64,000 bases of DNA, from assembly GCA_937930175.1 (NCBI GenBank), contig CALGLP010000006.1, positions 1,749-65,748 on the forward strand. Direction: 5' to 3'. Numbering within the stretch: the first letter of the stretch is position 1; each line of letters begins with the position of its first letter. The notes under the pieces are model-generated. The model ran no database searches. It was not told the origin of the DNA and was given only the letters and a program-made list of their open reading frames with translations. The translations under genes and the position numbers were made by a program. Positions 24,965 to 55,558 of this stretch are shown here, piece after piece. This DNA is from an uncultured bacterium. GTDB lineage: Bacteria > Omnitrophota > Gorgyraeia > Zapsychrales > Aceulaceae.

Positions 24965-25070
24965 TCAAGGTAGGCGTTTACCTGGCTGGTAGCTGTTAGT
25001 GAAATAGATTAAGGTGAAGTTCGTTTTGGCCAAGACATCATTTGATATTTTCGATAACAAGGAGGGCCAG

Positions 25071-38878: not shown

Positions 38879-41800
38879 ATGAAAATTAAATCTTCGCTAT
38901 TTCTTCTCTTCCTTGCAGGTTTGTTTTTTTTGTCTGGAGCCTGCGGCCTTGTTTATGAAATAATTTGGGTGCGCAAGCTGGGACTCATTTTCGGCAATAC
39001 GACTTTGGCGATTAGTACTGTCTTGGCCGTCTTTATGGCTGGCCTAGGGCTTGGGAGTCTTTTTTTTGGCAAGCAAATCGACAAGCATGGACATCCGTTT
39101 GCGTGGTATGGGTTTTTAGAAATAGGGATCGGTTTCTTTTGTTTTTGTACGCCGTGGTTTTGGGTTTTCATTGAAAAGTTTTATGTCTGGGTTTACCAAT
39201 GGCTTCCGCTTTCGTTCTGGCCTTTTAGTGTTTTTCGTTTTCTTCTTTGCTTTGCATTTCTTTTTGTCCCGACTTTTTTGATGGGCGGGACCTTGCCAGT
39301 TTTAACAAAATTTCTTATCCGTGATCATCGTCTAACCTCAAGGGTTGTTGGCGTTTTGTACGGGATTAATACCTTAGGTGCTGTCGTCGGCGTTCTTGGG
39401 ACCAGCTTTTACGCGATTTATGTTTTTGGTCTTCAAGGCACTGTGTTGATGACAGCAGGCATTAACATCTTGATTGGTTTGATCGTTCTTTTTGTTTTGA
39501 GGCTTAAACGCTTTATTTTTACGGGTGGCAATCCTGCACAAGACGTTGTTGGGCTGCAAGGGGAAGATGATGCTATCGAGAGCCCTGTCGAAAGCCATGT
39601 GAGCGAGACCAATCTCGCGACAATCTTATTGTTTGCGTTTGCGTTATCGGGCTTTACATCCATGGCCTATGAATTGTGTTGGACCAAGGTTTTGGCGCTT
39701 TGTCTGGGTAGCTCCGTGTATTCGTTTGCGATCATGCTGGCATCGTTTTTGACGGGATTAGCCTTGGGTAGCTTGTTGATCGGTTGGCTAGCCAAGAAAA
39801 TACGTGTTTCTTTTTATCTTTTTGGACTCCTCGAGCTTGGTATTGGTCTTTTTGCGCTGTGGGGCATCAATATTTTTGATCAGATGCCTTTGTATTTTCT
39901 GCAGCTCTTTGCATTCTTTGGCCAGCAGAGTGTTCATCTGCATATTGCAAAGTTTGTTTTAGCCAGCCTTGTTATTTTACCGCCTGCGATGTGTATTGGA
40001 GGCACCTTTGCCGTGGTGGCGCACATCCTCAATCGTCTACCAGAAAAGACAGGCCAAACCATTGGCCGCGTCTATTTTATTAATACGCTTGGTTGCATCG
40101 CAGGGTCAGTCTTGACAGGCTTTGTTTTGATTCCATGGGTGGGGATTTACAAGACTCTCCTTATGATGATTGTGGTGAATATCTTGTTGGGATTGATGAT
40201 CCTTTGTGTTGCACAAAAGCGATTCTCATCCTCTGAGAAATGGACCTTAGGTTTTCTTGTTATTCTTTTGAGTGTTCTTTTTCTGCAGACGCACCCCTGG
40301 TCGAAAGGCCTTTTGACGTCCAATATCGCTATTGATCCGAGAACTTATCTTGGTCACAGTAAGTTTGAGATTTTAAATAGCACGCAGCAATCGGAATTGC
40401 TTTATTACAAAGAAGGCTTGAGCGCAACCGTTGCTGTCAAGCGCCATCAGGATGTTCTTTCATTGTCTATTAATGCTAACGTGGATGCTTCGACGGGAAC
40501 AGATATGTATACACAGCTGATGCTTGGGCACTTGCCGAGCTTGCTTGTTGATCATCCTAAACGCGCCTTAGTCATTGGGATGGGAAGCGGGGTAACTTTG
40601 GGAGCTTTGGCGACCTATGATTATCACGAAATTCATTGTGTTGAGCTTGAGGGAGCTGTTCTCAAGGCAGCACAATATTTTTTGAAACAAAATCGTCATG
40701 TTTTAGCGGATCCGCGGCTTACGAATTTTGTTAATGATGGCCGTCATCATCTTTTAACAGAGAATTTTTCTTATGACGTGATTGTTTCTGAACCATCGAG
40801 TCCTTGGATGGCGGGTGTTGCCAATTTGTTTACGCGAGAGCAGTTTGAGCTCATGAAGAAGCGCTTGTCTAGGCAAGGCGTTGTTTGCCAGTGGCTCAAC
40901 ACCTATAGCATGTCGTCAGACAATATTCAGATGATTGTCAAAACATTTCGTGAGGTTTTTCCTTACGCGAGTCTTTGGCAAACCATTGGCGCGGATCTTC
41001 TGTTGGTGGGGTCGACGTACCCTATCGCCTATGATATTGACGCGATTAATAAGAAGTTCGCGCATAATGCCTTGCTGAAAGAAGACTTAAAAGATTTTAC
41101 TATTGATGATGCGGTTGGGATCTTGTCTTGTTTCTTGCTTACGAATGATGAGTTGCTTGCGATGTCCCTTAATGCGCCGATCAATAGCGATAACGTTCCT
41201 TTGTTAGAATATTCTGCCCCTCTTAATCTCTATGGGTTTGAGCAAGTTGTTTCCGACAACATGCAAATGATTACGATACAACGAAAGCAGCGATATCCTG
41301 CGATGGTGAGGCCTCCTCAAAATAGCAAGGAAGTCATCGCTTTTCATAATACGCTTGCGCGTGCTTTTCTTCAAAAAGGAAATTATCAGGAAGCTGGGAT
41401 TGAGATCGGTCTTTCCAATCAGGAGGAGGCCTTTAATCCTGAGGCGATTTTAAATTATGGCATTCTTCAGACATTTCTTGGGAATGCGGATGAGGCGATT
41501 ACGAATCTAGAGAATTATCTCAATATTGGCAAAGAAAATGCTGAGGCTTATTTTTATCTTGGGAAAGCGTACGAATTTAAACAGCTTTTTGATCAAGCCT
41601 TAAAGTACTATCAGCTAGCCGTTATGGCAGAGCCTAGTCATGCGGAATATCTTTTTGTTTATGGCGAGTCTCTGATGGGTCAAGGAGAGAAGGTTGAGGG
41701 AATTCGTTTTTTACAAAAGGCTATTGATTTTGAAGGTCTGGATTTTAGAAGCGGTCTTATTTTAAGTCAGGCCTTCTTTTTTAATCAGCAGCTTGACCCA

Positions 41801-42067
41801 GCGGTGCGAACCCTCGAGCTTCTTTTAAACGATTATCCACATTTTTATAAAATTTATGAAACTATGGCAAGTTTTTATGAAGCGGTTGGGCAGAATTCTC
41901 AGGCCCTTGCTGTTTATCATGAGGCGAATAAGAAATTGCCGTTTGATGCAAGAATTTATTATGCGATGGCCACTCTTTACCAGAAATTGGGAAAAATAAA
42001 AGAATCACGGATGATGATGCGAAAATATTTTTATTATAACAATGCGCCGCGCATTGGCGTGCGGTAA
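38879..42067 (+). CDS. Spermidine-synthase-family protein fused to an N-terminal polytopic membrane domain and C-terminal TPR repeats
   Basis: About 12 TM helices, then an aminopropyltransferase-like core (VIGMGSGVTLGAL...VIVSEPSSPW). C-terminal TPR-like repeats. 1062 aa. Confidence 0.7.
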   Translation: MKIKSSLFLLFLAGLFFLSGACGLVYEIIWVRKLGLIFGNTTLAISTVLAVFMAGLGLGSLFFGKQIDKHGHPFAWYGFLEIGIGFFCFCTPWFWVFIEKFYVWVYQWLPLSFWPFSVFRFLLCFAFLFVPTFLMGGTLPVLTKFLIRDHRLTSRVVGVLYGINTLGAVVGVLGTSFYAIYVFGLQGTVLMTAGINILIGLIVLFVLRLKRFIFTGGNPAQDVVGLQGEDDAIESPVESHVSETNLATILLFAFALSGFTSMAYELCWTKVLALCLGSSVYSFAIMLASFLTGLALGSLLIGWLAKKIRVSFYLFGLLELGIGLFALWGINIFDQMPLYFLQLFAFFGQQSVHLHIAKFVLASLVILPPAMCIGGTFAVVAHILNRLPEKTGQTIGRVYFINTLGCIAGSVLTGFVLIPWVGIYKTLLMMIVVNILLGLMILCVAQKRFSSSEKWTLGFLVILLSVLFLQTHPWSKGLLTSNIAIDPRTYLGHSKFEILNSTQQSELLYYKEGLSATVAVKRHQDVLSLSINANVDASTGTDMYTQLMLGHLPSLLVDHPKRALVIGMGSGVTLGALATYDYHEIHCVELEGAVLKAAQYFLKQNRHVLADPRLTNFVNDGRHHLLTENFSYDVIVSEPSSPWMAGVANLFTREQFELMKKRLSRQGVVCQWLNTYSMSSDNIQMIVKTFREVFPYASLWQTIGADLLLVGSTYPIAYDIDAINKKFAHNALLKEDLKDFTIDDAVGILSCFLLTNDELLAMSLNAPINSDNVPLLEYSAPLNLYGFEQVVSDNMQMITIQRKQRYPAMVRPPQNSKEVIAFHNTLARAFLQKGNYQEAGIEIGLSNQEEAFNPEAILNYGILQTFLGNADEAITNLENYLNIGKENAEAYFYLGKAYEFKQLFDQALKYYQLAVMAEPSHAEYLFVYGESLMGQGEKVEGIRFLQKAIDFEGLDFRSGLILSQAFFFNQQLDPAVRTLELLLNDYPHFYKIYETMASFYEAVGQNSQALAVYHEANKKLPFDARIYYAMATLYQKLGKIKESRMMMRKYFYYNNAPRIGVR

Positions 42068-42514: not shown

Positions 42515-43105
42515 ATGTTTTTTTCAAAACCAAAACCGGAAGAAGTATCAGGGCAGCTTGAAATCGATTTGATCATGTCGATGGTTAAGGCGGTGAACAA
42601 GGTTGTTCTGCAGAAATTTGAAATTAGTTTCAAAGAAAAGCCCAAGATCGACAAGAAGATGGTCGTGCAATGGCAAGGCAAGATGAAGATCGTGAAGCCT
42701 TCCGATTGTGTTTTTATTTCTGTGACCGTGATTGAGCGTCCTCAAGCCAAAGACAATGGTATTGTTGTCCTTTATATTCCTGAGTCGATTGCAGAAACCA
42801 TTGCAGTTGTTTTTGGCGCTAAGCGTAGCGATGGCGTTGAAGGCCTTTTGAAGGCATGTGGTAGTTTTTTGACGGAAGTGGCGGATTGTTTTAAGGCTTA
42901 TATGACGAAGCTTGGGTATGAAGATCTTAAGTTTTCTGCGCCGATGAATTTTACGTTGAAGGTTGACCAGCTTTTTGATTTTTATCAGGCAACCAGGTTT
43001 CAGATTACGTTTTCTCATGAGGGTGAAAAATTTCTTGAATTTGATGTTGGTACGGGGCCTCTGAAAAAAATTGCGATGCCTCAGCCTGGTGGCAGTCCAT
43101 CATAG
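42515..43105 (+). CDS. Hypothetical protein (possibly CheX/CheC-like signalling accessory)
   Basis: 196 aa, no TM. Function guessed only from position upstream of a receiver and hybrid kinase. Motifs not conclusive. Confidence 0.3.
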   Translation: MFFSKPKPEEVSGQLEIDLIMSMVKAVNKVVLQKFEISFKEKPKIDKKMVVQWQGKMKIVKPSDCVFISVTVIERPQAKDNGIVVLYIPESIAETIAVVFGAKRSDGVEGLLKACGSFLTEVADCFKAYMTKLGYEDLKFSAPMNFTLKVDQLFDFYQATRFQITFSHEGEKFLEFDVGTGPLKKIAMPQPGGSPS

Positions 43106-43145
43106 AAATTTAGAATAAATGTGAATCCATGATCAAGGAGGATGT

Positions 43146-43541
43146 ATGTGGAAGATATTAGTCGTTGATGACAATCCTAACAATTGTATGCTTTTGGTTT
43201 CAACCCTTGAGGATCTTGCGATCTGTGATGTCGCTGAAAATGGCGAGGACGCGCTTGCGGCTTATGATAAGTCCCTTGAAGACAAGAAGCCTTATGACGC
43301 CATTCTTTTGGATATTGCTATGCCTGGTATTGATGGCGTTGAAGTCTTGAGACGCATCCGCGCCAAAGAACAGAGCGCTAATGTTTTAGCGCCGAAGGCT
43401 ATTCCTATCTTTATGGTGACGGCCCATAAAGCTCCTTTTATGGATTCGTTTAATGTTGGATGCGATGACTATATTCTAAAGCCGATTGAGCCGGATAAAG
43501 TGATTTTGAAGATTAAGGATAGGCTCGAGGGGTCAACATAA
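43146..43541 (+). CDS. Single-domain response regulator (receiver only)
   Basis: ILVVDDN, LLDIAMPG, MVTAH, ILKPI motifs. Confidence 0.85.
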   Translation: MWKILVVDDNPNNCMLLVSTLEDLAICDVAENGEDALAAYDKSLEDKKPYDAILLDIAMPGIDGVEVLRRIRAKEQSANVLAPKAIPIFMVTAHKAPFMDSFNVGCDDYILKPIEPDKVILKIKDRLEGST

Positions 43542-43576
43542 GGTATTCGCTGAGAAATTTCTTTATAAGTGCGCAG

Positions 43577-46204
43577 ATGATGTCATCATTTTTTCATCGC
43601 ATACAATTTATATCTTGTCTTTGCTTAGAAGGTTTTGGGCTTGCGTTCGCTGCAAGCCTTTTTTATTTCTTTCTTGTTATTGTGAGTGCGTTATTCTTTC
43701 CTCACGACAGATCTTTCTTTTTTGCGGCAGTAACTTCGTCACTATCATTAGGGCTTTATTTTTTCTGGCGCATGAAAAGAAAAAGGAATTCATTTTCGCA
43801 TTTCTCACGTGAGCAAGAAAAAGTCCTCCATGCCATTCTTCCCGCCGGAATTTTTACTATTGATCATAATCGCTGTATTACGAGCTGGAATGCCGCGGCA
43901 GAGGAGATTACCGGTTATTCTGCGCATGAGGTTATGGGACGTCCATGCACGATTCTTGCTATGAAATCCTGTGATCTTGATGAGGAAAAGCAAAAATTCA
44001 AGAACAGCTATGTATGCACGATTCGTAGAAAAGATGGTCAGCAGAGGTATGTCTTAAAACGTGCGGATTATGTGCGTGACCATACGGGGAAGATTATCGG
44101 AGGGATTGAGAGTTTTGAAGATATTACCGAGCGCCGTGAATCCGAAAGGTTATTAAAGGAATCGGAAGAGCGTTTTCGGACCATTTTCGAGAATTCAGCT
44201 GCGGGCATCACCGTTACGGATAAGGATGAGCGTCTTGTTTCGTGGAATAAACATGCCGAACAGATTTTGGGAATGGAGCATGCCGATTTGTATCTTAAGC
44301 CTGTGAGTTCCCTGTATCCACAGCAAGAATGGGAAAAGATACGCGCGATGAATATTCGTGAGGAAGGATTTCGTCTTAATTTTGAAACCATGTTGATCCG
44401 CAAGGATCAAGCTATGATTGATGTCGATATGTCGATTAGCATTCTCAAAGATGCCCAGGGGAACGTCTCGGGCTCCATTGCAGTTATCCGTGATATTACA
44501 GGACGCAAGCTTCATGAGCAGATCTTGAAAGAATCAGAAACTAAATTTCGGTCTATTTTTGAGAATTCCGCGATTGGGATTATTGTGAGCGACAAGAACA
44601 ACCGTCTTGTTTCATGGAATCGCTTTATCGAGCAGTTTCTTGGCAAGGGTTATGATGATCTGTATTTTCAGCATGTAAGTTCTTTGTATCCTCTTGAGGA
44701 ATGGAAGCGGATTTGTGAATTTGGTTTGCGTGCGCAAGGGGCGGATCATCATTATGAAAGTAAAATGGTCCATAATGATGGAACTGTGCTTGATGTGGAC
44801 GTTTCCATTTCTGTTATTTGTGATGATGCTAAAGACATTGTTCGAACGATAAGCTTTGTTCGTGATATTACGGATCGCAAGAAAGCTGAAAATGATTTGC
44901 TGATCGTTAACCGGGATCTTATTGCCAATGAGCGCGCCTTACGTACATTGCTTGAAGATTTAAACAAGACTCATGAGGAGCTTAAAGGCGCCCAGGCGCA
45001 AATTTTGCAACGGCAGGAGGAGCTGATCGAACGCAATAAGCAAGAACAAATTTTACGCGAAGAGGCCGAAGCCGCGACTCGCGCTAAGGGGGATTTTCTA
45101 TCTAATATGAGTCATGAAATTCGAACACCGCTAAATTCAATCATTGGATTTTCTCAGCTCTTGCGGAAGATTGCTTTGGATGAAAAGGGAAAGAAATTTT
45201 TGATGATCATTGAGTCAAGCAGTCAGCATCTTTTGAATATTGTGAATAATATTCTTGATTATGAAAAAGCCATTGCAGGCCGCATTGTTCTTGATGAAAG
45301 CAAGATTGATTTTAACGCGCTTGTGGCTCAGGCGTTTCGTGTGGTTTCTGGCAATGTGGCCAATCGTGCTCTTGAACTTAGTTTTAAGATCGATGAGCGT
45401 ATTCCACCGGTTTTGTATGGTGATGATATGAAGATTAAGCAGGTTTTTATCAATCTTGTGGCGAACGCGGTTAAATTTACTAAGAAAGGCTCTGTCAAGC
45501 TTTTGGCGACTCTTGATGGTGTTCGTCAAGAACCCACGGGAAAGATTTTTGACCTGTTGATCACTGTCGAAGATACGGGGATCGGTATTCCTCAAGAAGC
45601 TCAGAAAAAGATTTTTGAACAATTCACCCAAGCCGATAGCTCAACGACACGACATTTTGGTGGGACAGGTCTTGGGCTCGCGATTTGCAAGGCCTATGTT
45701 GAGCTGATGGGTGGGAAGATTTGGGTTGAGTCGCAAGCAGGTAAGGGGAGTAAGTTTATTCTTAAAATACCGTTTTATGAAAATCTTGAACATACGCAAA
45801 AGGTTGAGTACCAGGAGCGTTTTCTTGCCTTTGAGCATGTCAACGTTTTAGTGGCGGATGAGGACCCGGCTCGCCGAGAACAGCTCGTTGGTTTTCTGGA
45901 AGCGTTAAAGTGTCAATGGACGTGCGTGCAAGATGGTCAAGCCTTGCTTGAGGAGGTTAAGAAGAAGAAATATGATCTCTGTTTTGTTAATGTCATGCTT
46001 CCTAAGTTAACCGGTGTGGCCGCGATTCAAAAGATCCGCCTAGAATCAGGAAAAAAGATCCCGATTATTGCTTTGACCGCTGCGAGCTTTTTTGAGGATA
46101 AGCAAAATTGTCTTGAGGCGGGGATGGATGATTTTGTTTCGATTCCGTTATCTGCAGAGCAGATCAAGGAAAAGCTTTACACCTACGCTCCAAAATCACC
46201 CTAG
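43577..46204 (+). CDS. Hybrid sensor histidine kinase: 2 TM, multiple PAS domains, HisKA, HATPase, degenerate C-terminal receiver
   Basis: Three to four PAS-like repeats (FRTIFENSAAGI.., FRSIFENSAIGI..). H-box SNMSHEIRTPLNS. HATPase boxes. The C-terminal receiver has Asn at the phosphoacceptor position (CFVNVMLP) and lacks the conserved Lys. Confidence 0.85.
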   Translation: MMSSFFHRIQFISCLCLEGFGLAFAASLFYFFLVIVSALFFPHDRSFFFAAVTSSLSLGLYFFWRMKRKRNSFSHFSREQEKVLHAILPAGIFTIDHNRCITSWNAAAEEITGYSAHEVMGRPCTILAMKSCDLDEEKQKFKNSYVCTIRRKDGQQRYVLKRADYVRDHTGKIIGGIESFEDITERRESERLLKESEERFRTIFENSAAGITVTDKDERLVSWNKHAEQILGMEHADLYLKPVSSLYPQQEWEKIRAMNIREEGFRLNFETMLIRKDQAMIDVDMSISILKDAQGNVSGSIAVIRDITGRKLHEQILKESETKFRSIFENSAIGIIVSDKNNRLVSWNRFIEQFLGKGYDDLYFQHVSSLYPLEEWKRICEFGLRAQGADHHYESKMVHNDGTVLDVDVSISVICDDAKDIVRTISFVRDITDRKKAENDLLIVNRDLIANERALRTLLEDLNKTHEELKGAQAQILQRQEELIERNKQEQILREEAEAATRAKGDFLSNMSHEIRTPLNSIIGFSQLLRKIALDEKGKKFLMIIESSSQHLLNIVNNILDYEKAIAGRIVLDESKIDFNALVAQAFRVVSGNVANRALELSFKIDERIPPVLYGDDMKIKQVFINLVANAVKFTKKGSVKLLATLDGVRQEPTGKIFDLLITVEDTGIGIPQEAQKKIFEQFTQADSSTTRHFGGTGLGLAICKAYVELMGGKIWVESQAGKGSKFILKIPFYENLEHTQKVEYQERFLAFEHVNVLVADEDPARREQLVGFLEALKCQWTCVQDGQALLEEVKKKKYDLCFVNVMLPKLTGVAAIQKIRLESGKKIPIIALTAASFFEDKQNCLEAGMDDFVSIPLSAEQIKEKLYTYAPKSP

Positions 46205-48747
46205 GGGTTTTTCTCTAAGTCGTTTATAAATGTTTCCCAATCTATCTTAAAAGCAAACAATTGAGTCTGTTCCGTGAGATCGTGTTCATCGACAAAAGGC
46301 TCAATGTAGCGAAAGCTTTTTGCTCCCCAGAAATAAAGTTTTGCCATGATGGAGTCGGCAATGATCTCGTCCATGAGAATGCACGCGTAGCGATGATCCC
46401 TTGTTTGGAAAACAAAAACGCTGTAGGGAAGAGTGGCATTTAAAAACTCTTTTTTGATGGGTGCTGTTGCGGTCTCAACGAATAAATGCTGAGGAACTCC
46501 TGTACCAAATTTTGGTGAGGTAGCTGTGACACTTAGGTTTTTTAAGTCAACAGCGATTCCGTTTTGAAATGAGATCTTTTCATCTCCCTCGTTTATTTGA
46601 TTGAGGATCTCGCTATAGCGTAGGAGGCCTCCTTGTGTATCCCAAAGAAGGGAAATATAGTCTTTGGAGTTAAGCTTGCGGACTTGCTTAAGCAGGGAAG
46701 GATTGGCGTTGATGTCCTCGAGCTTTTTGATATTCCAACGGGCGGCAAAACCGATACCGATATTGGATTCGATCATGTCATTATAGAGAAATACATACGA
46801 AGGGGGAGGTTGTCCGTGGGTGAGATTAATAAGGGTATCCGCGTCTTGGCTGTTTAATGTTTTCATAAGAAATGCTTTGGCTTTGTTTTGAGGTAGGACG
46901 ACAATATATTCAATGATATCAACGACTTCGGAAAGCTTTTTACCTTTGTTAAGAAGAAATTCGCTTGCCTTATTCGCGCTGGTGTTAAGCATACGAAGGA
47001 TCCCTAAAGTCTTTTTCTCGCTTGGGCTGTAGAGGGCGCGTGCCATCCAGAACGCCTGTGGAACATTGATTGTGGCTCCGTCAAAGGTCACGCGTCGTTG
47101 GGCAATCGCCTTGATAAAATGACCCGGTGGCCACCAGGTATTGATGATGCTATCGTGCGGTGTTTTTTCTTGAAGGGTCACAAGGGCGCGTTCCCAGGCT
47201 TCGTTAAAGATCGGTCTGATGCGTGATGCCAAGTCGTCAGCTTTTAAGATCGGCGCGATTGCAAAAGAAACCACAATAAGCACGCAAAGCGTAGTTTTGA
47301 TTTCTGTAGACCACGGAGGGTAAGGATTAAATCTATTAATGGCGCTTTGAAGTCCGATAAAGATTTTTTCAAACCCATAAGCTGCCAAAAGGCTAAGCGG
47401 TACAACGAGCAACAAGACAAATCTTTGCGCCTGAAGCGCCAAGAGTAACGAGGAGAAAAAGAAAATAAAGACAAGGAGCATTTTATAACTTGTCTTCTTA
47501 GAAGGGTGGTGGAAAAGGTCAAGAAAAAAGCAGATGCTGCCCCCGATCGCGATTAAAAACCAGAAGGCATTTCCGGCTAAATCAAAGAGTTCTGACCAAG
47601 ATGTCCGGTTTAGTTCTCCGACGCTCATATAGATATCAGGCCAGAGACTCAAATTGGAGGAAAGAAAGAAATCGTTTAAGACCGACCATCCTTCTTGGAA
47701 GAGAAAGAAGAATTGGTTAAGTCCAAAGGCCGCCACGACACCAATAAAGATCGTTACAAACGTGATGCCAAAAAAAATAGCTACGTTGGAAGTCTTTTTT
47801 TCTTTTTTCAAGATAAAATATTCCACCCCTGTGACAAGAATTCCTGCGGCTAAAATAACACAGAAAAGATAAACCCAGCCTTGCCAAAAGAAGGCATAGC
47901 AGACGATGCTAAGTGCAGTTAACAAGGCAAAAAGTATTCGTTTTCTTTGATGGTGAGCGTTTTCAATGCCCAGGAAGGTCAGCCAAAGGATCAACAAAGG
48001 AAAGAAAATATTGTAAATGTCATTGTCGTACCATCCAAAAAAGCTTCGTCGCAAGAAAATAGGAGCCAGGATAAATAGTGAGCCTCCGATTAGGCAAGCC
48101 CAGGAATGGATGCCAAGGTGTTTTAATAATAAAAGAAATAAAAGAGCTGAAAGGATTGTTAAGAAAACAGGAAGGAAGCTTATGGCGAGCATTAGGGAGA
48201 TCTGCGGATTAAACATGCGCATCAATTGATAGGTCCAAAAACCGACAAAGGGATGAAGGTTGATCTTCTCCCAGTATCCTAAGGGTGCTAGCATGAGATC
48301 ATTAAAGTATTCCGCGCCTTTGCGTTTTTGCATGATTTGTTTGTTTTCTGCAAGTTGTTTGGTCATGCCATAAAAATAATAGGAATCAGAATCCGGAAGA
48401 TAGATCTCAGGTTCTTTTTTGTCTGGATTTTCAATGAGTTCGCGGCCGTAGATTTTTTGCGCGAGGGTAAAGATCGATTGCTGAATTTGCTTCCTCTTTT
48501 GTGAGGTGATTTCGCTAAATTTTTGGTCAGCTAAAAGACGTTTTTGATCGTCATTGAGGCCTGGATAAAGGCGGTTGACATTCTGCTCAATGTCTGTGCG
48601 TATTTGTGAAAAAACCATCAGGGTGGCTTTTTCTTCAGAGGCGGATGAGATGCGGTAGAGAAAAGGATAGAGCCTGAAGTAGGATCCAACGATGATAACG
48701 ATCGCGGCGATCAAAAGGTACTTTAGTGGTTCTTTAAGGTTGTTCAT
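46201..48747 (-). CDS. STT3/PglB/AglB-family oligosaccharyltransferase homologue (variant WWDYG motif)
   Basis: 848 aa. About 13 TM N-terminal domain with YLPDSDSYYFYG (acidic catalytic motif region). Large periplasmic C-terminal domain containing INTWWPPGHF in place of WWDYG. Confidence 0.6.
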   Translation of the reverse strand: MNNLKEPLKYLLIAAIVIIVGSYFRLYPFLYRISSASEEKATLMVFSQIRTDIEQNVNRLYPGLNDDQKRLLADQKFSEITSQKRKQIQQSIFTLAQKIYGRELIENPDKKEPEIYLPDSDSYYFYGMTKQLAENKQIMQKRKGAEYFNDLMLAPLGYWEKINLHPFVGFWTYQLMRMFNPQISLMLAISFLPVFLTILSALLFLLLLKHLGIHSWACLIGGSLFILAPIFLRRSFFGWYDNDIYNIFFPLLILWLTFLGIENAHHQRKRILFALLTALSIVCYAFFWQGWVYLFCVILAAGILVTGVEYFILKKEKKTSNVAIFFGITFVTIFIGVVAAFGLNQFFFLFQEGWSVLNDFFLSSNLSLWPDIYMSVGELNRTSWSELFDLAGNAFWFLIAIGGSICFFLDLFHHPSKKTSYKMLLVFIFFFSSLLLALQAQRFVLLLVVPLSLLAAYGFEKIFIGLQSAINRFNPYPPWSTEIKTTLCVLIVVSFAIAPILKADDLASRIRPIFNEAWERALVTLQEKTPHDSIINTWWPPGHFIKAIAQRRVTFDGATINVPQAFWMARALYSPSEKKTLGILRMLNTSANKASEFLLNKGKKLSEVVDIIEYIVVLPQNKAKAFLMKTLNSQDADTLINLTHGQPPPSYVFLYNDMIESNIGIGFAARWNIKKLEDINANPSLLKQVRKLNSKDYISLLWDTQGGLLRYSEILNQINEGDEKISFQNGIAVDLKNLSVTATSPKFGTGVPQHLFVETATAPIKKEFLNATLPYSVFVFQTRDHRYACILMDEIIADSIMAKLYFWGAKSFRYIEPFVDEHDLTEQTQLFAFKIDWETFINDLEKNP

Positions 48748-49504
48748 TTCTTTGTTTTACTTCCTCTAAAAAAGTTAAATAGGTTTGGATAATTTTGTCT
48801 GAGGGGATCGCAAAGCAGAGCCTATCTTGATCGCCTTGTTTGGCCACCATGAGTCCGATCATCTGTCCCTTGGTGTTAAACAAAGGTCCTCCGCTATCAC
48901 CTTGGTAAATATTGATATTGAGTTGAAGAAAATCTGGAGGACTGTTGGTATAAGGATTGCCATGCTTGGCCACGCCAGTGACTCTCCCGCCGGATAACGT
49001 TTGTTTTAAAAAGGGTGAATTGCCAACAGTGACAACCTCATCATCAATGTTGACATTAGCAGAATCGATCATCTCGACGCGACTTAAGGGATAGGGAGGG
49101 GTAATTTTAAGAAAGGCAAGGTCTCGCTCAGGAAAAACTTTTAAGATTTGGGCTATGGTGACTGCGCCGTCCATGAGGCGGATCTCAACCCGGGCGCCCT
49201 CGTTGACAGTGTGGGCGTTGGTCACAATAATGCCCGCGGGATCAATAATAACACCAGAGCCTTCGCGGGTATATTCCGCAGCCTTGACGCTGTCAACTTG
49301 AATCAGTTGGCCTGTTTGTTTATCAATAAAAGCTCCGCCAGGTACCTTAAACATCATGGCATTCTTGGCTGTTATTTCCACGATGCAGGGCAAAACATAT
49401 TGCATGCGCTCGATGATCGAGTCTTGCGCCAAGGCGCTAGAGATACCCGTATAGAGGACAAAAAGGAAAAGGCTAAGGAATTTTAAGGCATTCATTTTAT
49501 GCAA
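48734..49504 (-). CDS. Secreted trypsin-like serine protease (S1 family, no PDZ domain)
   Basis: Signal peptide. His (TNAHTV), Asp and GDSGGPLFN Ser motifs. Overlaps the start of the downstream OST-like gene. Confidence 0.8.
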   Translation of the reverse strand: MHKMNALKFLSLFLFVLYTGISSALAQDSIIERMQYVLPCIVEITAKNAMMFKVPGGAFIDKQTGQLIQVDSVKAAEYTREGSGVIIDPAGIIVTNAHTVNEGARVEIRLMDGAVTIAQILKVFPERDLAFLKITPPYPLSRVEMIDSANVNIDDEVVTVGNSPFLKQTLSGGRVTGVAKHGNPYTNSPPDFLQLNINIYQGDSGGPLFNTKGQMIGLMVAKQGDQDRLCFAIPSDKIIQTYLTFLEEVKQRNEQP

Positions 49505-49947
49505 AGATATTCTTTGGGTTGATGAAAGGTGATCATGAATTATTTACCATTCTACCTATCAAGGATAAGAAATTCAAGATAAAGTTGGGGAGTTGTCTGA
49601 TCGAGGCCAGGAGAATGGAAAGGTGGAAAATGTTATTGCTAGTTTCTTTGCTAACTTGTACAAACTTTATGAAACAAAGGGAGTTCTTTAGCAATATAAC
49701 AACTTCAAGGATGTGGAGTTACATCTATTTTGTATTGACAGGAGTGATCTTGTTTTGTACTATATGTTCATTGTCTGAACGCTTTATACGCTGATGGAGC
49801 CCAACGACTAAAGTTATCCGTCCTTCTAGCAAAAGGGCGAACATTTGCCGAAGCGGCAATATTGATACTATTTTCGTATTCCGCAACGGGTAAACCCGTG
49901 GTATTCTGCGTAGGCGGACGAATTGAACGCTTCAAGAAAGTAGCCCT

Positions 49948-50496
49948 ATGCTTGATGAAAGAGAGTTCGAGCTCGTGAACATCGTTGGCGCAGAAATTGT
50001 CTCCAGTCAGCGTGATCTATCCCGCAATATGAACCTTTCCTTGGGTCAGACAAACATGCTTTTGCGTCGGCTTATCACCAAGGGCTATATTCGCATCAGC
50101 AAGCTCGATAAGCGTAGAGTAAAATACCTTCTCACTCCTCAAGGTATTGCTGAAAAAATGGACAAATCCATCAAATATACCTTAAGAACGATTAATTCCA
50201 TTGGTCTTATTAAAGAGCGGTTTAAAGATATTTTGAAAGAGATTTACGCCAAGGGTGAGCGAAAATTTTTTATTCTCGGTGAATCTGATTTAGCGTCCTT
50301 GGTTGAGATGGCTGCGCACGAGCTTTCCTTTATGGATTGTTCGTTTACGCGTATTCAAGACGTTTCCGCTGACTCTGCGACTGGGACGGTTCTTGTCTGC
50401 CAAGAGGATGTTTTTGACAAAGTCGTGGCTAACAATAAGATCGATTTGATTCATGAGTTGGCCAAGGATTCGGCGTTGCTAAAGGGAAAAGGATGA
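49948..50496 (+). CDS. Winged-helix (MarR-like) transcriptional regulator
   Basis: N-terminal wHTH (SQRDLSRNMNLSLGQTNMLLRRLITKGYI). 182 aa. Confidence 0.5.
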   Translation: MLDEREFELVNIVGAEIVSSQRDLSRNMNLSLGQTNMLLRRLITKGYIRISKLDKRRVKYLLTPQGIAEKMDKSIKYTLRTINSIGLIKERFKDILKEIYAKGERKFFILGESDLASLVEMAAHELSFMDCSFTRIQDVSADSATGTVLVCQEDVFDKVVANNKIDLIHELAKDSALLKGKG

Positions 50497-50954
50497 AAAT
50501 TAAAATCGATTTTGAATATAAGTCATTTGTGGACGACATCAAAAAATGCGTCCGTGCTTCACAATACGAAGCGTTGAAGGCGGTTAACAAGGAGCTTATT
50601 TCTCTTTATTGGGACATTGGACGGCAGATTGCCGATAAGCAGAAAAAGCTTGGTTGGGGCAAGGCAGTGGTTGAGAATCTGGCGAGTGATTTGCAGAAAG
50701 AGTTTCCAGGGATCAAAGGGTTTTCGACTCAAAATTTGTGGTATATGCGGCAGTTTTATAGCGAATATCAAGGGAGCCTAATTCTCCAACCAATGGTTGG
50801 AGAAATCAGTTGGGCAAAACATTTAGTTATTATGAGCCAATGCAAGAAAGTTGAGGAGCGTGCTTTTTACATCAATATGACTAAAAAGTTTGGCTGGACC
50901 AAGGATGTCCTCGTCCATCAGATTGAGAATCAGTCAGTGGAATTTGCGATTTAA
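50493..50954 (+). CDS. YhcG/DUF1016 N-terminal-domain-only protein (truncated paralogue)
   Basis: LISLYWDIGRQIADKQKKLGWGKAVVENLASDLQKEFPGIKGFSTQNLWYMRQFY matches the N-domain of the following full-length gene. No PDDEXK nuclease part. Confidence 0.6.
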   Translation: MKIKIDFEYKSFVDDIKKCVRASQYEALKAVNKELISLYWDIGRQIADKQKKLGWGKAVVENLASDLQKEFPGIKGFSTQNLWYMRQFYSEYQGSLILQPMVGEISWAKHLVIMSQCKKVEERAFYINMTKKFGWTKDVLVHQIENQSVEFAI

Positions 50955-50990
50955 ATCAGGAATCTATCACTTGACAGCAAGGGGATAAGC

Positions 50991-52013
50991 GTGAGTAAGG
51001 TTATTGATCAGTCTTTTAAGGAAGTTGTAAGTCTTATTCGCGGTGCACGGCAAAGGGCTTATAAAACGGTTAATACCGTTTTGATAGATCTATATTGGCA
51101 AATTGGTGAGTATGTTTCGCGAAAGGTTGATGCGCAGGAATGGGGCCGTGCTGTTGTTCAACAGTTGGCCGAGCATTTAGCACAGGCAGAACAGGATTTA
51201 AAGGGATTTTCTGCTTCGAATATATGGCGTATGAAGCAATTTTTTGAGATGTATAAGGACGCCCAGAAACTCGCAACACTGTTGCGAGAATTATCTTGGT
51301 CAGCGCATCTGCATATTATGTCCAAGTGCAAATCTTTAGAGGAGCGAGAGTTCTATATGCAGGTTGCCGTTAAGGAACGCTGGTCTGTCCGGGATTTGTC
51401 TAGAAATATTGATAGTTGTTTTTACGAAAGGATGCGGCTTTCTCCAGCAAAGCTCTCTACAGCGTTACAAGAACTGCATCCTGCTGCGGGACAGGCGTTC
51501 AAAGATGCATATGTTTTCGATTTTTTAAATTTACCTGAGAAGCATTCAGAGAAAGAACTTCAAAAGGGGCTCATCGCTGATCTCAAGAAGTTCCTTGTGG
51601 AGCTCGGATCTGATTTTTGTTTTGTTGGTGAGGAGTATCGTTTGCAGGTGGGTGTGCAGGATTTTTTTGTGGATCTTTTGTTCTTTCATCGGGGGCTATC
51701 GTGCCTGGTTGCTTTTGAATTGAAAGTTGATCTTTTCAAGCCAGATTATTTGGGCCAGCTTTCTTTTTATCTGGAAGCGTTGGATCGAGATGTGCGTAAG
51801 CCGTATGAAAAACCAAGTGTTGGGATACTTCTATGTAAGTCTAAAGACAGCGAAGTGGTTGAGTATGCTTTAAGTCGCACGCTTTCGCCTGCATTGATCG
51901 CGGAATATCACACAAAACTTCCTAATAAGATATTACTGCAGAAGAAGATGGAAGAGTTTTATGCATTGGAGTCAGAGCGAACGATTGCAAATGATGCAAT
52001 AGCAGGATCTTGA
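50991..52013 (+). CDS. YhcG-family PDDEXK nuclease-like protein (DUF1016)
   Basis: N-domain (LIDLYWQIGEYVS...FSASNIWRMKQFF) plus C-terminal PDDEXK-like core (D...ELK: LVAFELKVD). Confidence 0.7.
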   Translation: MSKVIDQSFKEVVSLIRGARQRAYKTVNTVLIDLYWQIGEYVSRKVDAQEWGRAVVQQLAEHLAQAEQDLKGFSASNIWRMKQFFEMYKDAQKLATLLRELSWSAHLHIMSKCKSLEEREFYMQVAVKERWSVRDLSRNIDSCFYERMRLSPAKLSTALQELHPAAGQAFKDAYVFDFLNLPEKHSEKELQKGLIADLKKFLVELGSDFCFVGEEYRLQVGVQDFFVDLLFFHRGLSCLVAFELKVDLFKPDYLGQLSFYLEALDRDVRKPYEKPSVGILLCKSKDSEVVEYALSRTLSPALIAEYHTKLPNKILLQKKMEEFYALESERTIANDAIAGS

Positions 52014-52208: not shown

Positions 52209-52583
52209 ATGAAAATAGAAAAATTTGAGGATATTGGAGCCTGGCAGCAAGCAAGAGATCTAGTAAATTTAGTTTATGAATCTGTCCAAGGAAATTTATT
52301 TTCTAAAGACTTTGGTTTAAAAGACCAGATCCAAAGAGCTTCGGTTTCTATCATGGCCAATATTGCTGAAGGCTTTGATTCAAGCTCAGATGTTGATTTT
52401 ATAAAATTTTTAATTTATTCAAGGCGTTCTGCAACCGAGGTTCAGTCTCATTTGTATGTTGCTTTAGACCGAAAATATGTGACGCAGAAAGAATTTCAAG
52501 AATTATATAAAAGATCTAACGAGGTAAAAGCGCTCATTGGTGGATTTATTAAATACTTAAGAAAGCCAAGACCACGGACGTAG
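52209..52583 (+). CDS. Four-helix-bundle protein (23S rRNA IVS protein family)
   Basis: QRASVSIMANIAEGFDS...SRRSATEVQSHL. 124 aa. Confidence 0.8.
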   Translation: MKIEKFEDIGAWQQARDLVNLVYESVQGNLFSKDFGLKDQIQRASVSIMANIAEGFDSSSDVDFIKFLIYSRRSATEVQSHLYVALDRKYVTQKEFQELYKRSNEVKALIGGFIKYLRKPRPRT

Positions 52584-52745: not shown

Positions 52746-53117
52746 ATGAACGAATATCAAAAAGAATATCTTGTTTCGGTAGGCGAGCGGCCTTGGGGCA
52801 GCTATAAGGTGCTTTTAAACGGCGATGATCACAAGGTCAAAGAGATTACGGTCTTGCCTGGTCAGCGATTAAGCCTTCAAAGGCATCAAAAGCGAGAAGA
52901 GCACTGGTTTATTCATCATGGTCAGGCCAAGGTGACGATTAACGGTGTCGCGCATTTGCTTGCTGTTGGCCAGTACATTGATATCCCTCGGGGTTGCGAG
53001 CATCGTATCGAAAATGTCAGCAAGGAAGACCTTGTTTTTATCGAGATTCAAACCGGGGATTATTTTGGTGAAGATGATATTGAGCGCTTGGATGATGATT
53101 ATGCAAGGAAAAAGTGA
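52746..53117 (+). CDS. Cupin-domain protein (type II phosphomannose isomerase / ManC C-terminal-like)
   Basis: WGSYKVL...EITVLPGQRLSLQRHQKREEHWFIHHGQAKVTING...IPRGCEHRIEN cupin motifs. 123 aa. Confidence 0.65.
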   Translation: MNEYQKEYLVSVGERPWGSYKVLLNGDDHKVKEITVLPGQRLSLQRHQKREEHWFIHHGQAKVTINGVAHLLAVGQYIDIPRGCEHRIENVSKEDLVFIEIQTGDYFGEDDIERLDDDYARKK

Positions 53118-53640
53118 AAGGTGATCGGCGCATAGTTGACGGGTTAATAAGGTTAAAGGTTGAAGGGTGAAGGATTAAGTGCAAGAAAAGAGCCAAAATA
53201 AAGATTTAGAACAAAGGACCTTTAATTTTTCAGTTGAAGTTGTTAAATTCCTGAAGGAAATCAGGTTTTCTAAAGTTCACGATGTCATAATATATCAACT
53301 AGCAAAGTCCGCAACATCTATAGGCGCTAACTATTAGGAGAGTCAGGGAGCTTATAGCAAGGAAGATTTTAAATTCAAGGTATCGATTTGTTTGCGTGAG
53401 GCAAAAGAGACTCATTATTGGCTAAGGATTATAAAAGAGACCGGTATCGCAAAAGGTGAAAAGTTAGAAAAATTAATTCAAGAATCAAGTGAGTTTAACA
53501 AAATATTTACAAGCATTTTAAAAAAAATCCATTACCGTAAAGATGTTTAATGTTATTTTTTCAACCTTCAAACTTTAACCTTGACCCTTTAACCTTTTAA
53601 AATTCTAAGAACTAAGAGTTAAGAGTTATCAACTAACAAA
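53118..53640 (+). mobile_element. IR-flanked four-helix-bundle cassette 4 (gene inactivated)
   Basis: ggttaaaggttgaagggtgaagg upstream vs ccttcaaactttaaccttgaccctttaacc downstream are inverted copies. Confidence 0.45.
53179..53550 (+). pseudogene. Four-helix-bundle protein gene with in-frame amber stop (TAG at 53335-53337)
   Basis: GTG start after AAGGA. Translation ...LAKSATSIGANY*ESQGAYSKEDFKFKVSICLREAKETHYWLRII matches the family across the stop. Confidence 0.55.
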
Positions 53641-53653
53641 CAAGGAGTCTAAT

Positions 53654-54493
53654 ATGATTGATAATCAAAATATGTATGATGACGAAATTGACCTAAGAGA
53701 ATATATTAACGTTGTCATTAAGTGGAAAAAGCTTATTATAGGCATATTCCTCGCATCTGTGATTGGCGCAGCTATTTATAGCTACAAGATGCCAAAGATT
53801 TATGAAATTAATTCTACGCTTGCGCTTGGCAGCGTTAACGGGCCTTTGATTGGTAATGAAGAAGCCAAGCAAATTCTTCTTAATCAGAACAGTCTTTTAT
53901 CGATCATTAAAGAACTCGGTCTCAAAGGCGAGCCTGCAAGCCTTAAGAAATTGATCAAGATTGAAGATGTTAAAGACACAAATTTGCTTAAAATCAGGAT
54001 AACGTCATCAGACCTCGAAAAAGCCCTCAAGATCAACGATGCTATTGTTAAACCATTTATTGCTCAGGGGCAAAAGCTTTACCTTCAACGCCTGTCCATG
54101 TTTAATGTGAGATTAAATGAACTTGAATTAGAAATTAAGAATGCCGAAGGCGATATTGCTCGCACGCAAACCCTGATCTCCGGACTTCCTGCGTCAACGG
54201 GCATTTCTCAGTCCGATGTATCGCTAAGGATCATTCTTTTGCAAAATACTCTTCCAAATTATGAAAGCAATCTTACGGCGCTGAGGAATCAAAGAAGCGA
54301 CTTAAGGCTTTTGCTTGAAAGTGCGAAGGATTTCAAGGTTTTTGAGTCGCCGATTGTTCCAAAGCATCCTGTAGGACCAAACAAAAAGAAAATCGTGGCG
54401 CTGGCTGGAATCTTGAGTCTCATGGCCGGTGTCTTTCTGGCGTTTTGTATGGAATTTTGGCAGAAAAGTAAAATTGGAGAAGTTAAGAAATGA
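53654..54493 (+). CDS. Wzz/polysaccharide co-polymerase (chain-length determinant) family protein
   Basis: N-terminal TM. Periplasmic coiled-coil region. C-terminal TM ([22 protein letters not shown]). 279 aa. Confidence 0.7.
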
Positions 54494-55557
54494 AAAAAGC
54501 GCTTATCACAGGCATTACCGGGCAAGACGGCTCCTATTTGGCAGAATTCTTGCTCTCGAAGGGATATGAGGTCCATGGACTGAGGCGTCGTGTTAGTACT
54601 TTTAATACTCATAGGATAGACCATATATATGTAGATCCTCACAGTCCTAATGCAAAAATGTTTCTCCACTTTGGCGACCTAAACGATGCTAGTCAGCTTA
54701 CGCATATGATTTATAATATTCAACCCGATGAAATTTACCATCTTGCTGCGCAGAGCCATGTCAGGACGAGTTTTGAAATTCCCGAGTACACGAGCGACAT
54801 CACCGGGCTTGGCACGGTGCGCCTTTTAGAGGCGGTGAGAAGAAGCGGAATACGAACGCGTTTTTATCAAGCATCATCGAGCGAAATGTTTGGAGCTTCG
54901 CCTCCACCTCAAAATGAGCAAACTCCATTTTATCCAAGAAGCCCTTATGGTGCAGCCAAAGTTTATTCCTATTGGATGATTGTTAATTACCGAGAAAGCT
55001 ATAATATGTTTGCTTGCAACGGGATACTATTTAACCATGAAAGCCCTAGGCGCGGTGAGACGTTCGTCACTCGTAAGGTCACGAGGGCGATTGCGCATAT
55101 TCTTGCTGGGAAGCAAGATAAGCTGTATCTAGGTAATTTAAAGGCTAAGAGAGATTGGGGTTTTGCTCCCGAGTTTGTTGAATGCCAATAGAAAATCCTT
55201 CAGCAGGACAGACCCGATGATTATGTCATAGGGACTGGTGAAAGTCATTTTGTTGAGGAGTTTGTGGTTGAGGCCTTCGGATATTGCGGGTTAGAGTACA
55301 AAAAATATGTTGAAATTGATCCTGTGTATTATCGCCCATCTGAAGTTGACTATCTTTTAGCCGATATTTCTAAGGCTAAGAGGGTTCTTAGCTGGTCACC
55401 ACGAATTACGTTTAAAGAGCTTGTCAAGATTATGGTGGATTCTGATACAAGGTTGGTTGGGTTAAAGCCAAAGGGTGAAGGCGATGCTATTTTAAGGGCG
55501 AAAGGCATTGCTTGGACTAAAAATATTATTCAATATCAAGTCCCTTCTAAGGAATAA
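54490..55557 (+). pseudogene. gmd: GDP-mannose 4,6-dehydratase gene interrupted by an in-frame TAG at 55189-55191
   Basis: N-part ([17 protein letters not shown]...) and C-part (PDDYVIGTGESHFVEEFV...) are in the same frame. Only one stop, at the position where GMDs have the Trp of the EAMW motif. Confidence 0.7.
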
Positions 55558-55558
55558 A

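Follow-up and report, generated by a model that had tools for sequence, protein, structure and literature searches.

In PglB, which serves as a frame of reference here, the acceptor carboxamide is hydrogen-bonded by D56 and E319, two residues that also join D154 and D156 in binding the metal, and R375 contacts the donor pyrophosphate (PMC7226087). The Asp of the WWD motif hydrogen-bonds the +2 Ser/Thr hydroxyl of the sequon, a role in recognition and not in catalysis, and a DK or MxxI motif gives the remaining contact to the +2 residue; WWD and the DK-type Lys, conserved over all three domains of life, define the N-x-S/T sequon (PMC7226087). Here we describe an STT3-family protein of 848 amino acids (aa) in which the motif reads WWPPGH, encoded beside a secreted serine protease in 64,000 nucleotides (nt) of DNA from an uncultured bacterium of the Omnitrophota (family Aceulaceae; assembly GCA_937930175.1, contig CALGLP010000006.1, positions 1,749 to 65,748 of the forward strand). 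This whole stretch is called the window, and its numbering is used throughout. The two genes and their junction are as follows.

46201..48747, minus strand: STT3/AglB-family GT-C glycosyltransferase, 848 aa (open reading frame (ORF) list and translation)
48734..49495, minus strand: secreted S1 (trypsin/HtrA-like) serine protease without PDZ, 253 aa (ORF, Pfam and signal peptide)
48734..48747, minus strand: overlap of the protease 3' end with the STT3 5' start, 14 nt (direct sequence reading)

AglB-like proteins of Woesearchaeota (e.g. MBR9677219.1; solved reference A. fulgidus AglB, 3WAJ/7E9S) are collinear with the window protein over its full length and share the long first external loop, the C-terminal beta-rich domain, the catalytic Asp, DxD, Glu and Arg, and the WW-x-x-G-H frame, but they have WWDFGH and a DK-type Lys, both absent in the Omnitrophota proteins, and the host here is a bacterium. 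C. lari PglB (3RCE/5OGL), which is bacterial, acts as a single subunit and shares the set of catalytic residues, is the best structural match, although identity is only ~15% and WWDYG, MxxI and the pgl glycan-assembly locus are peculiar to PglB in this comparison. Eukaryotic STT3A/STT3B give the best sequence match among solved structures, with SVSE against SVGE and YDN[D/E] shared; the WWDYG and DK motifs and the multi-subunit complex are theirs, unlike the window protein. The three-component logic of GacI/GacJ/GacL (Streptococcus) and PpgS/Rv3632/Rv3779 (Mycobacterium) matches three of four loci of a sister branch of the family, yet there the GT-C component lies outside the STT3 family and works on a polysaccharide acceptor, and the GT2/DUF2304 pair is absent from the window. 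HtrA, DegP and DegS share their protease domain and catalytic triad with the window protease, which lacks their one or two C-terminal PDZ domains. In Pseudomonas, TfpO/PilO and TfpW are membrane glycosyltransferases encoded within or beside type IV filament clusters; TfpO/PilO is a different protein family, and both TfpO/PilO and TfpW make O-linkages to pilin Ser/Thr. Homology of these enzymes to the window protein did not come to light, no search having been aimed at it.

The STT3-family protein and its acceptor pocket

The 848-aa protein matches PF02516 (STT3 N-terminal) over residues 115-468 with E=7.5e-23 and 82.1 bits, against a gathering score of 24.5. A single-sequence search of Protein Data Bank (PDB) sequences retrieved human and dog STT3A, and a profile of 35 family members matched STT3A (3.7e-22), A. 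fulgidus AglB (3e-13), yeast Stt3 (2.7e-8) and the C-terminal domain of C. jejuni PglB (4.7e-4); the PglB membrane domain was not detected when PDB sequences were searched with this profile. In sequence, archaeal AglB and eukaryotic STT3 are its nearer relatives, and PglB stands further off. The AlphaFold2 model built on the family alignment (mean predicted local distance difference test score 88.4, predicted template modelling score 0.84) consists of a first transmembrane (TM) helix, a long helical first external loop (~35-133), 12 more membrane helices and a mixed alpha/beta C-terminal domain. Foldseek comparison of the model with the PDB gave C. lari PglB as the best match (E=3e-19, target TM-score 0.67), followed by STT3A (1e-15) and STT3B, AglB (1.6e-13) and yeast Stt3. 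By homology, as judged from sequence and predicted fold together, the protein belongs to the STT3/AglB/PglB superfamily (CAZy GT66). A preliminary description of the window, made from the sequence without database searches, had proposed just such an STT3/PglB-like homologue with about 13 TM helices and a large soluble C-terminal domain; the model helices and the hydropathy profile both agree with 13 TM helices, and the soluble domain comprises ~340 aa.

The same description had raised the alternative of an ArnT/PMT-type GT-C or an unrelated membrane protein, with which we group any other GT-C enzyme outside the STT3 family. A distant fold is common to all GT-C enzymes, and ArnT, PMT, DPY19 and AftA do appear as weak structural matches. 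However, Foldseek E-values range from 3e-19 to 4e-11 for oligosaccharyltransferases and from 5e-7 to 1e-3 for DPY19, AftA, ArnT, ALG3 and PMT (ArnT 4.7e-5, Pmt4 1e-3), which leaves the former better by 4 to 16 orders of magnitude. The significant PDB sequence matches are STT3 and AglB, and no Pfam match to the PMT/ArnT profiles PF02366 and PF13231 was found in the protein at E<=1. Given the 82-bit STT3 match and the fold ranking, we rejected this alternative and attach next to no probability to it.

Active-site motifs were placed by HMMER alignment to human STT3A, and their conservation was read from family alignments of 35 and 181 sequences.

48379..48399, minus strand: LPDSDSY of the first external loop, with D121; aligned to IHEFDPY of STT3A
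48019..48033, minus strand: WYDND of the second external loop, D241-x-D243 (DxD/DxE metal-binding); aligned to SYDNE of STT3A
47611..47625, minus strand: SVGEL of the fifth external loop, with E378; aligned to SVSE of STT3A
47422..47424, minus strand: R442, the donor-phosphate Arg; aligned to the Arg in mvRlml of STT3A
47119..47136, minus strand: WWPPGH in place of WWDYG(Y/H); aligned to WWDYGY of human STT3A
46762..46785, minus strand: YNDMIESN, DK-type region; from group consensus comparison and pairwise alignment with the Woesearchaeota protein P0129

D121, within LPDSDSYYFYG (residues 117-127), is the equivalent of PglB D56 and STT3A D49; it is present in 35/35 sequences and in all of the 181 that cover the region. 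The preliminary description had asked for the conservation of the DxD and fifth-loop (EL5) residues to be checked: D241 and D243, the counterparts of PglB D154 and D156, are at least 90% conserved across the family, and E378, equivalent to PglB E319 (TIxE/SVSE), is invariant in the 35-sequence alignment. R442, the equivalent of PglB R375 and yeast R404, is invariant in the family. The catalytic Asp, DxD, Glu and Arg are kept by all 181 aligned proteins (with D241/D243 at the conservation just given), and the catalytic and metal residues persist in family proteins down to 23% identity. As aligned, the catalytic and donor-binding residue set of the 848-aa protein is intact.

The acceptor side of the site is different. 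In INTWWPPGHF (residues 535-544) Pro has taken the place of the Asp and of the Tyr of the motif, and the two Trp, the Gly and the His remain; W538, W539, G542, H543 and D556 are invariant in the 35-sequence alignment. Among the 181 aligned proteins the motif reads WWPP in 114, WWSP in 27, WWCP in 7, WWAP in 5, WWTP in 2 and WWDF in 21, with 5 others, and the position of the WWD Asp is held by P, S, C, A or T in 155/181, giving the family pattern WW[P/S/C/A/T]PG[H/Y]; WWD itself is confined to the 21 WWDF sequences. YNDMIESN, which sequence alignment matches to the DK-type motif of the WWD sister group and which may be equivalent to the region of yeast K586 or PglB I572, carries no Lys, nor does the YnDlieqNlA of the WWxPGY branch; the corresponding motif of the WWD sister group is ITSeDMvGKsGVW (SEDMVGKS). 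As far as the alignments place them, both halves of the canonical +2 pocket are replaced together, and the Asp position itself is free to vary. Replacement of both pocket halves, with catalytic residues that are invariant and an Asp position that varies, is the pattern that a change of specificity would leave, and not the one that decay of the enzyme would. The window protein lacks WWD, and probably also the DK/MI contact as aligned, and for these reasons we do not file it as a canonical N-oligosaccharyltransferase.

Both LPDSDSYYFYG and INTWWPPGHF had been pointed out in the preliminary description and are present in the translation, the WWPPGH falling opposite the WWDYGY of STT3A. Its statement that the catalytic Asp of the motif is missing is correct as to the absence of the Asp and mistaken as to its role, the residue being a reader of the +2 Ser/Thr (PMC7226087). 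Its suggestion of altered acceptor recognition is strengthened by a substitution that is fixed over a large clade with invariant catalytic residues, and by the accompanying loss of the DK-type Lys. We consider it probable, from the conservation pattern and the modelled fold, that this STT3-family protein is active as an enzyme and that its recognition of the acceptor is altered.

An ordinary N-oligosaccharyltransferase would instead modify the Asn of N-x-S/T, with the two Trp that remain, and their neighbours, binding the +2 hydroxyl. Such an enzyme would account for the invariance of W538, W539, G542 and H543 and for the fully intact catalytic residues, and the retention of D121 and E378, the carboxamide-activating pair in known enzymes, favours an Asn acceptor. 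On the other hand, the Asp position varies among P, S, C, A and T and is therefore without a specific role, the neighbouring Tyr is fixed as Pro, and the DK-type Lys, the second +2 contact, is lost too. We regard canonical activity as quite improbable. In an active enzyme with altered recognition, the rebuilt pocket would probably not read the +2 Ser/Thr of N-x-S/T in the manner of known oligosaccharyltransferases, since the Asp is replaced, the Tyr has become Pro and there is no DK-type Lys. With D121 and E378 both retained, Asn may yet provide the acceptor atom.

Distribution and ancestry of the family

A word-seeded search covering 5.8 billion proteins returned 37 full-length relatives with 32-72% identity, of which the named ones belong to Candidatus Omnitrophota, Candidatus Omnitrophica or Candidatus Aceula; two distant matches of the same search (22-24% identity) bear the canonical WWDFGH. 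An exhaustive HMMER search of 1.84 billion cluster representatives yielded 4,964 proteins at E<=1e-3 and 1,352 at E<=1e-30. When one genome per GTDB species was scanned, a relative was found encoded in 192 genomes. The best 80 of the 192 are nearly all labelled Omnitrophota, the remainder including several placeholder 'uncultured Planctomycetales' metagenome-assembled genomes and one that is likely mis-binned. The preliminary description had held such homologues to be rare outside Campylobacterota and Desulfovibrio-type bacteria, which does not apply to Omnitrophota, with its 192 species genomes.

The aligned proteins fall into a WWxPGH group of 129 sequences, which includes the window protein, a WWxPGY group of 26, whose named members are Omnitrophota too, and a WWDFGH group of 21, in which all 3 named sequences are Candidatus Woesearchaeota (DPANN). 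Judged by the names that the sequences carry, the WW-non-D family is confined to Omnitrophota, and its closest WWD-bearing relatives are the Woesearchaeota proteins. One of these, P0129, can be aligned with the window protein along the entire length, the long first loop included; with 26% identity (E=3e-81) it is only slightly more distant than the second Omnitrophota (WWxPGY) branch (27% identity, E=6e-115). These comparisons suggest that the gene probably originated as a DPANN-archaeal AglB-like gene, and we infer, with somewhat more confidence than doubt, that it passed from archaea into bacteria. Similarity to Woesearchaeota proteins over the full length is suggestive of an exchange of genes between two groups of prokaryotes that are ultra-small and host-dependent.

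The combination of a whole catalytic apparatus with replacement of both pocket halves thus extends over a clade that comprises at least 192 species and takes in many of the 1,352 wider-family representatives. If active, these enzymes would show how the acceptor specificity of the STT3 family can be rewired and would offer a new specificity for glyco-engineering; STT3-type glycosylation would also reach a bacterial phylum well outside Campylobacterota and Desulfobacterota. Database entries name the family proteins 'STT3 domain-containing protein' or carry automatic EC names only. Full-text literature searches brought up no paper in which Omnitrophota or Omnitrophica are connected with STT3 or oligosaccharyltransferases, the literature on WWDYG with pilin and surveys of bacterial oligosaccharyltransferases gave no prior description of the family, and two Omnitrophota genome papers that treat type II secretion system (T2SS) and type IV pilus (T4P) loci leave the enzyme unmentioned.

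Linked genes, with proposed donor and function

The gene upstream of STT3 encodes an exported trypsin-like protease, as the preliminary description had stated. The product has a Sec-type signal peptide (MNALKF...SSALA, with QD following the cut), a Trypsin_2 domain (89 bits in Pfam) and the triad H95, D125 and S201 (GDSGGP), invariant in 5/5 orthologues. No PDZ domain match was found in the 253-aa protease with Pfam, and TIGR02037 scores 123 bits against a cut-off of 416, matching at model positions 7-229 of 434 only. The protease ORF would run over 48734..49504 (minus strand) and encode 256 aa if it began at a TTG; we prefer the ATG at 49495, as in the gene-caller annotation, which gives 253 aa and the MNALKF start. 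The protease sequence has no N-x-S/T and for this reason is not an obvious canonical substrate of its neighbour.

The STT3 ATG at 48747 lies within the last 14 nt of the protease ORF and is preceded by GAGGA, an arrangement consistent with translational coupling of the two genes. For a test of their linkage, ORFs from the fetched DNA of 84 loci were searched with the hidden Markov model of the protease. It lies directly upstream of STT3 on the same strand in 66/76 loci (87%) with at least 800 nt upstream, the gap being typically -32 to +60 nt, and the remaining flanking upstream genes vary between loci. Overlap in the window and conserved adjacency elsewhere support a two-gene operon in which STT3 and the S1 protease would be co-transcribed, in line with what the preliminary description had read from the overlap. 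Upstream of the pair lies the following site.

49549..49577, minus strand: sigma-70-like candidate TTGAAT-17-TAGAAT, weak, ~55 nt 5' of the protease ATG

It is a possible promoter of the operon. The promoter/terminator scan gave this one weak promoter candidate only, and the regional count of such sites is not above shuffled expectation.

Clustering of all flanking ORFs across the 84 loci revealed a second recurrent neighbour of the window branch, a block of type IV filament genes that lies tail-to-tail with the STT3 gene in 63/79 loci (80%) with at least 1 kb downstream. This is the stronger of the context signals, and the preliminary description had not noticed it. Block and S1 protease are both present in 53 loci. 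Its members are:

TPR protein, ~297 aa: 64 loci, median gap to STT3 16 nt
Protein of ~205 aa: weak PilO match in one locus
PilM-PilN fusion: 47 loci
T2SSK-like minor pseudopilin: 39 loci
N-methyl pseudopilins: counts limited by the 5-kb flanks

In the WWxPGY branch the STT3 gene stands on the same strand within a complete GspG-type operon in 4/4 loci examined (L088, L090, L091 and L092; L090:1-13570 serves as an example). The operon has this order:

First part: T2SSE, T2SSF, GspG-type pseudopilin, minor pseudopilins, PilMN, ~210-aa gene, TPR
Second part: STT3, ~110-aa gene, optional GT2, T2SSK, S41/PDZ protease

The T2SSE ATPase of these operons carries MshEN, and PilZ as well in 3/4. The TPR, ~210-aa, PilMN and T2SSK genes are orthologous between the WWxPGY operon and the window-branch block (~30-37% identity), from which it follows that the TPR-STT3 junction existed before the two branches separated. 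Both branches have a periplasmic serine protease alongside STT3, but of different families: S1 in the window branch and S41 in the WWxPGY branch. Gene order and orthology across the two branches place the ancestral STT3 gene in linkage with a GspG-type type IV filament (T2SS/T4P-like) operon. Neither protease nor filament-operon neighbours were found at the Woesearchaeota locus examined. The filament link points to surface-filament glycosylation in organisms suspected of an attachment or predation lifestyle.

Position among assembly genes would also suit a catalytically dead pseudo-enzyme serving as a membrane scaffold of the filament machine: the sister-branch gene is set among PilMN, a PilO-like gene, TPR and T2SSK, and the hallmark motif is lost. 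Yet the metal and catalytic residues and the phosphate-binding Arg, needless for a scaffold, are kept over deep divergence, and donor-synthesis genes adjoin STT3 in the sister branch. We consider a scaffold highly unlikely.

Those donor-synthesis genes are a small GT2 and a DUF2304 gene, which form a divergent pair between TPR and STT3 in 3/4 WWxPGY loci. In the streptococcal system, GacI (GT2) and GacJ (DUF2304) make GlcNAc-P-undecaprenol, the donor for the GT-C enzyme GacL, and mycobacterial PpgS/Rv3632 is analogous to GacI/GacJ (bioRxiv 10.1101/180810). This analogy suggests a polyprenyl-monophosphate monosaccharide as the donor of the WWxPGY branch. The pair is absent from the window-branch flanks, except for a small GT2 in 8-9 loci, and for the window protein we infer the same type of donor by analogy only. 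In ~9 window-branch loci a small GT2 (~245 aa) and a PMT_2-type GT-C (~550 aa) lie between STT3 and TPR (L006:8812-11205 and L053:8634-10295 are examples), a second lipid-linked-sugar transferase pair at the same junction.

A GacI/GacJ-like pair beside the gene in 3/4 sister-branch loci bears in addition on a non-protein acceptor, such as an envelope polysaccharide, lipid A or the lipopolysaccharide core, or another lipid, to which the enzyme would transfer from a polyprenyl-P-monosaccharide like GacL, ArnT or GtrC-type enzymes. Characterised systems with such a pair decorate polysaccharides, the missing peptide +2 pocket fits a non-peptide acceptor, and a polysaccharide locus lies ~3 kb off in the window. 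Against this, the carboxamide-activating Glu of the fifth external loop is invariant, the large STT3-type C-terminal domain is kept at full length, and the partners that are conserved, a protease of the periplasm and an operon for a protein filament, have nothing of polysaccharide genes among them. Nor is nearness to the polysaccharide locus conserved. The preliminary description had drawn attention to this nonulosonic-acid and polysaccharide locus; it is real, beginning at ~52.7 kb, but its proximity is not conserved elsewhere and carries no functional weight. We find a non-protein acceptor unlikely, and a protein acceptor moderately favoured. A functional link between the pair and the adjacent locus was considered separately and rejected, as the locus does not travel with the pair in other genomes.

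The reading we favour is accordingly built around an exported protein acceptor. A periplasm-facing GT-C enzyme would take a sugar from a polyprenyl-(pyro)phosphate carrier; it and the secreted S1 protease would be made from one transcript; the enzyme would glycosylate at least one exported protein, its targets having at first been parts or cargo of the filament machine; and the protease may process or quality-control the same substrates. Taken whole, as an active STT3-lineage enzyme of likely archaeal origin with altered acceptor specificity and an exported-protein target, this reading, which draws on sequence comparison and a structural model, seems to us evenly poised. That the acceptor belongs to the filament system is a tentative suggestion, to which we lend less belief than disbelief. 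A fuller version, in which a DPANN-derived AglB-like gene became a glycosyltransferase for a new acceptor motif (possibly another atom), supplied by a GacI/GacJ-type donor and acting in filament maturation with the protease, we hold to be doubtful.

Several observations weigh against the favoured reading. At the protein level, PF21436 (C-terminal STT3-PglB core) reaches only 12.8 bits in the 848-aa protein, below its gathering score of 23; a precomputed match is present in several WWxPGY sister-branch members. Both Trp of WWD are retained and could still bind a Ser/Thr hydroxyl, and the equivalence of the DK region comes from sequence alignment and not from coordinates. For the archaeal origin, the profile used in the HMMER search held two WWD sequences, which inflated the ranking of WWD relatives; the pairwise comparison of the window protein with P0129 is independent of that bias. 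The S1 protease is missing in ~13% of loci (10/76), where an AraC-type regulator takes its place in two and a polytopic membrane protein in one, and no alternative protease was found at these 10. As to the filament system, the major pseudopilin of the linked operons is of conventional GspG type, with no conserved sequon-like feature. The block of the window branch is convergent with STT3 and not co-transcribed, and may in part be retained ancestral gene order. In the window and the related Aceula lineage its place is taken by a 196-aa protein, a response regulator and a hybrid histidine kinase with PAS domains, and tblastn at E<=1e-3 found no filament genes, GacI/GacJ-like genes or S41 protease in the 64-kb window. 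For this genome the filament link would thus be inherited context and not local evidence.

Other features of the window

The genes that adjoin the STT3 stop in the window are:

42515..46204, plus strand: 196-aa protein without Pfam match, response regulator and hybrid kinase, convergent to STT3

The hybrid kinase has 875 aa and the architecture PAS-PAS-HisKA-HATPase-receiver, and the response regulator is stand-alone. The trio overlaps the STT3 stop by 4 nt, and the same trio occupies the same position in Candidatus Aceula lacicola (L004:8563-12253); it is a second conserved neighbourhood, specific to the sub-lineage of the window. The STT3-protease pair is among the few minus-strand units here, the rest being nearly all on the plus strand. 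GC skew is positive in every 2-kb bin of the window and nearly all long ORFs are on the plus strand, which fits a single replichore with strong gene-strand bias. At 12-16 kb, where methyltransferase, ketoacyl-synthase and 7TM-kinase genes lie, GC content falls to 0.33-0.36.

The surface-glycan locus (52746..63881, plus strand) encodes a mannose-6-P isomerase-type cupin, Wzz, dehydratases, a DegT aminotransferase, a CBS-nucleotidyltransferase, a PglD-like acetyltransferase, NeuB, a UDP-GlcNAc 2-epimerase-type enzyme and a PIG-L deacetylase, and is a nonulosonic acid pathway of legionaminic or pseudaminic type. Within it, the GDP-mannose 4,6-dehydratase gene (54490..55557, plus strand) has a single in-frame TAG at 55189-55191 (…PEFVECQ, stop, KILQQDRPDDYVIGTG…). 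In this family the position is normally occupied by a conserved Trp, so that the change would be TGG to TAG. The resulting split into 233 and 97 aa is also called in two other assemblies of this organism, and we take the TAG to be, most likely, a genuine nonsense mutation of this polysaccharide locus.

Between the pair and this locus, at 50493..52013 (plus strand), a 153-aa ORF with the DUF1016 N-terminal domain only is followed by a full-length 340-aa DUF1016/YhcG PDDEXK nuclease; the short ORF looks like a partial tandem duplicate. A gene for a 23S rRNA intervening-sequence protein comes after the two (52209..52583). On the far side of the kinase trio, a 1,062-aa fusion (38879..42067, plus strand) joins an MFS-like polytopic N-terminus, a spermidine-synthase-like domain and C-terminal TPR repeats. 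Finally, a protein of 2,627 aa (25014..32897, plus strand) combines SpvB, TcdB middle/N-terminal, FG-GAP and RHS-repeat regions and resembles the Tc-toxin B/C or RHS polymorphic-toxin proteins.

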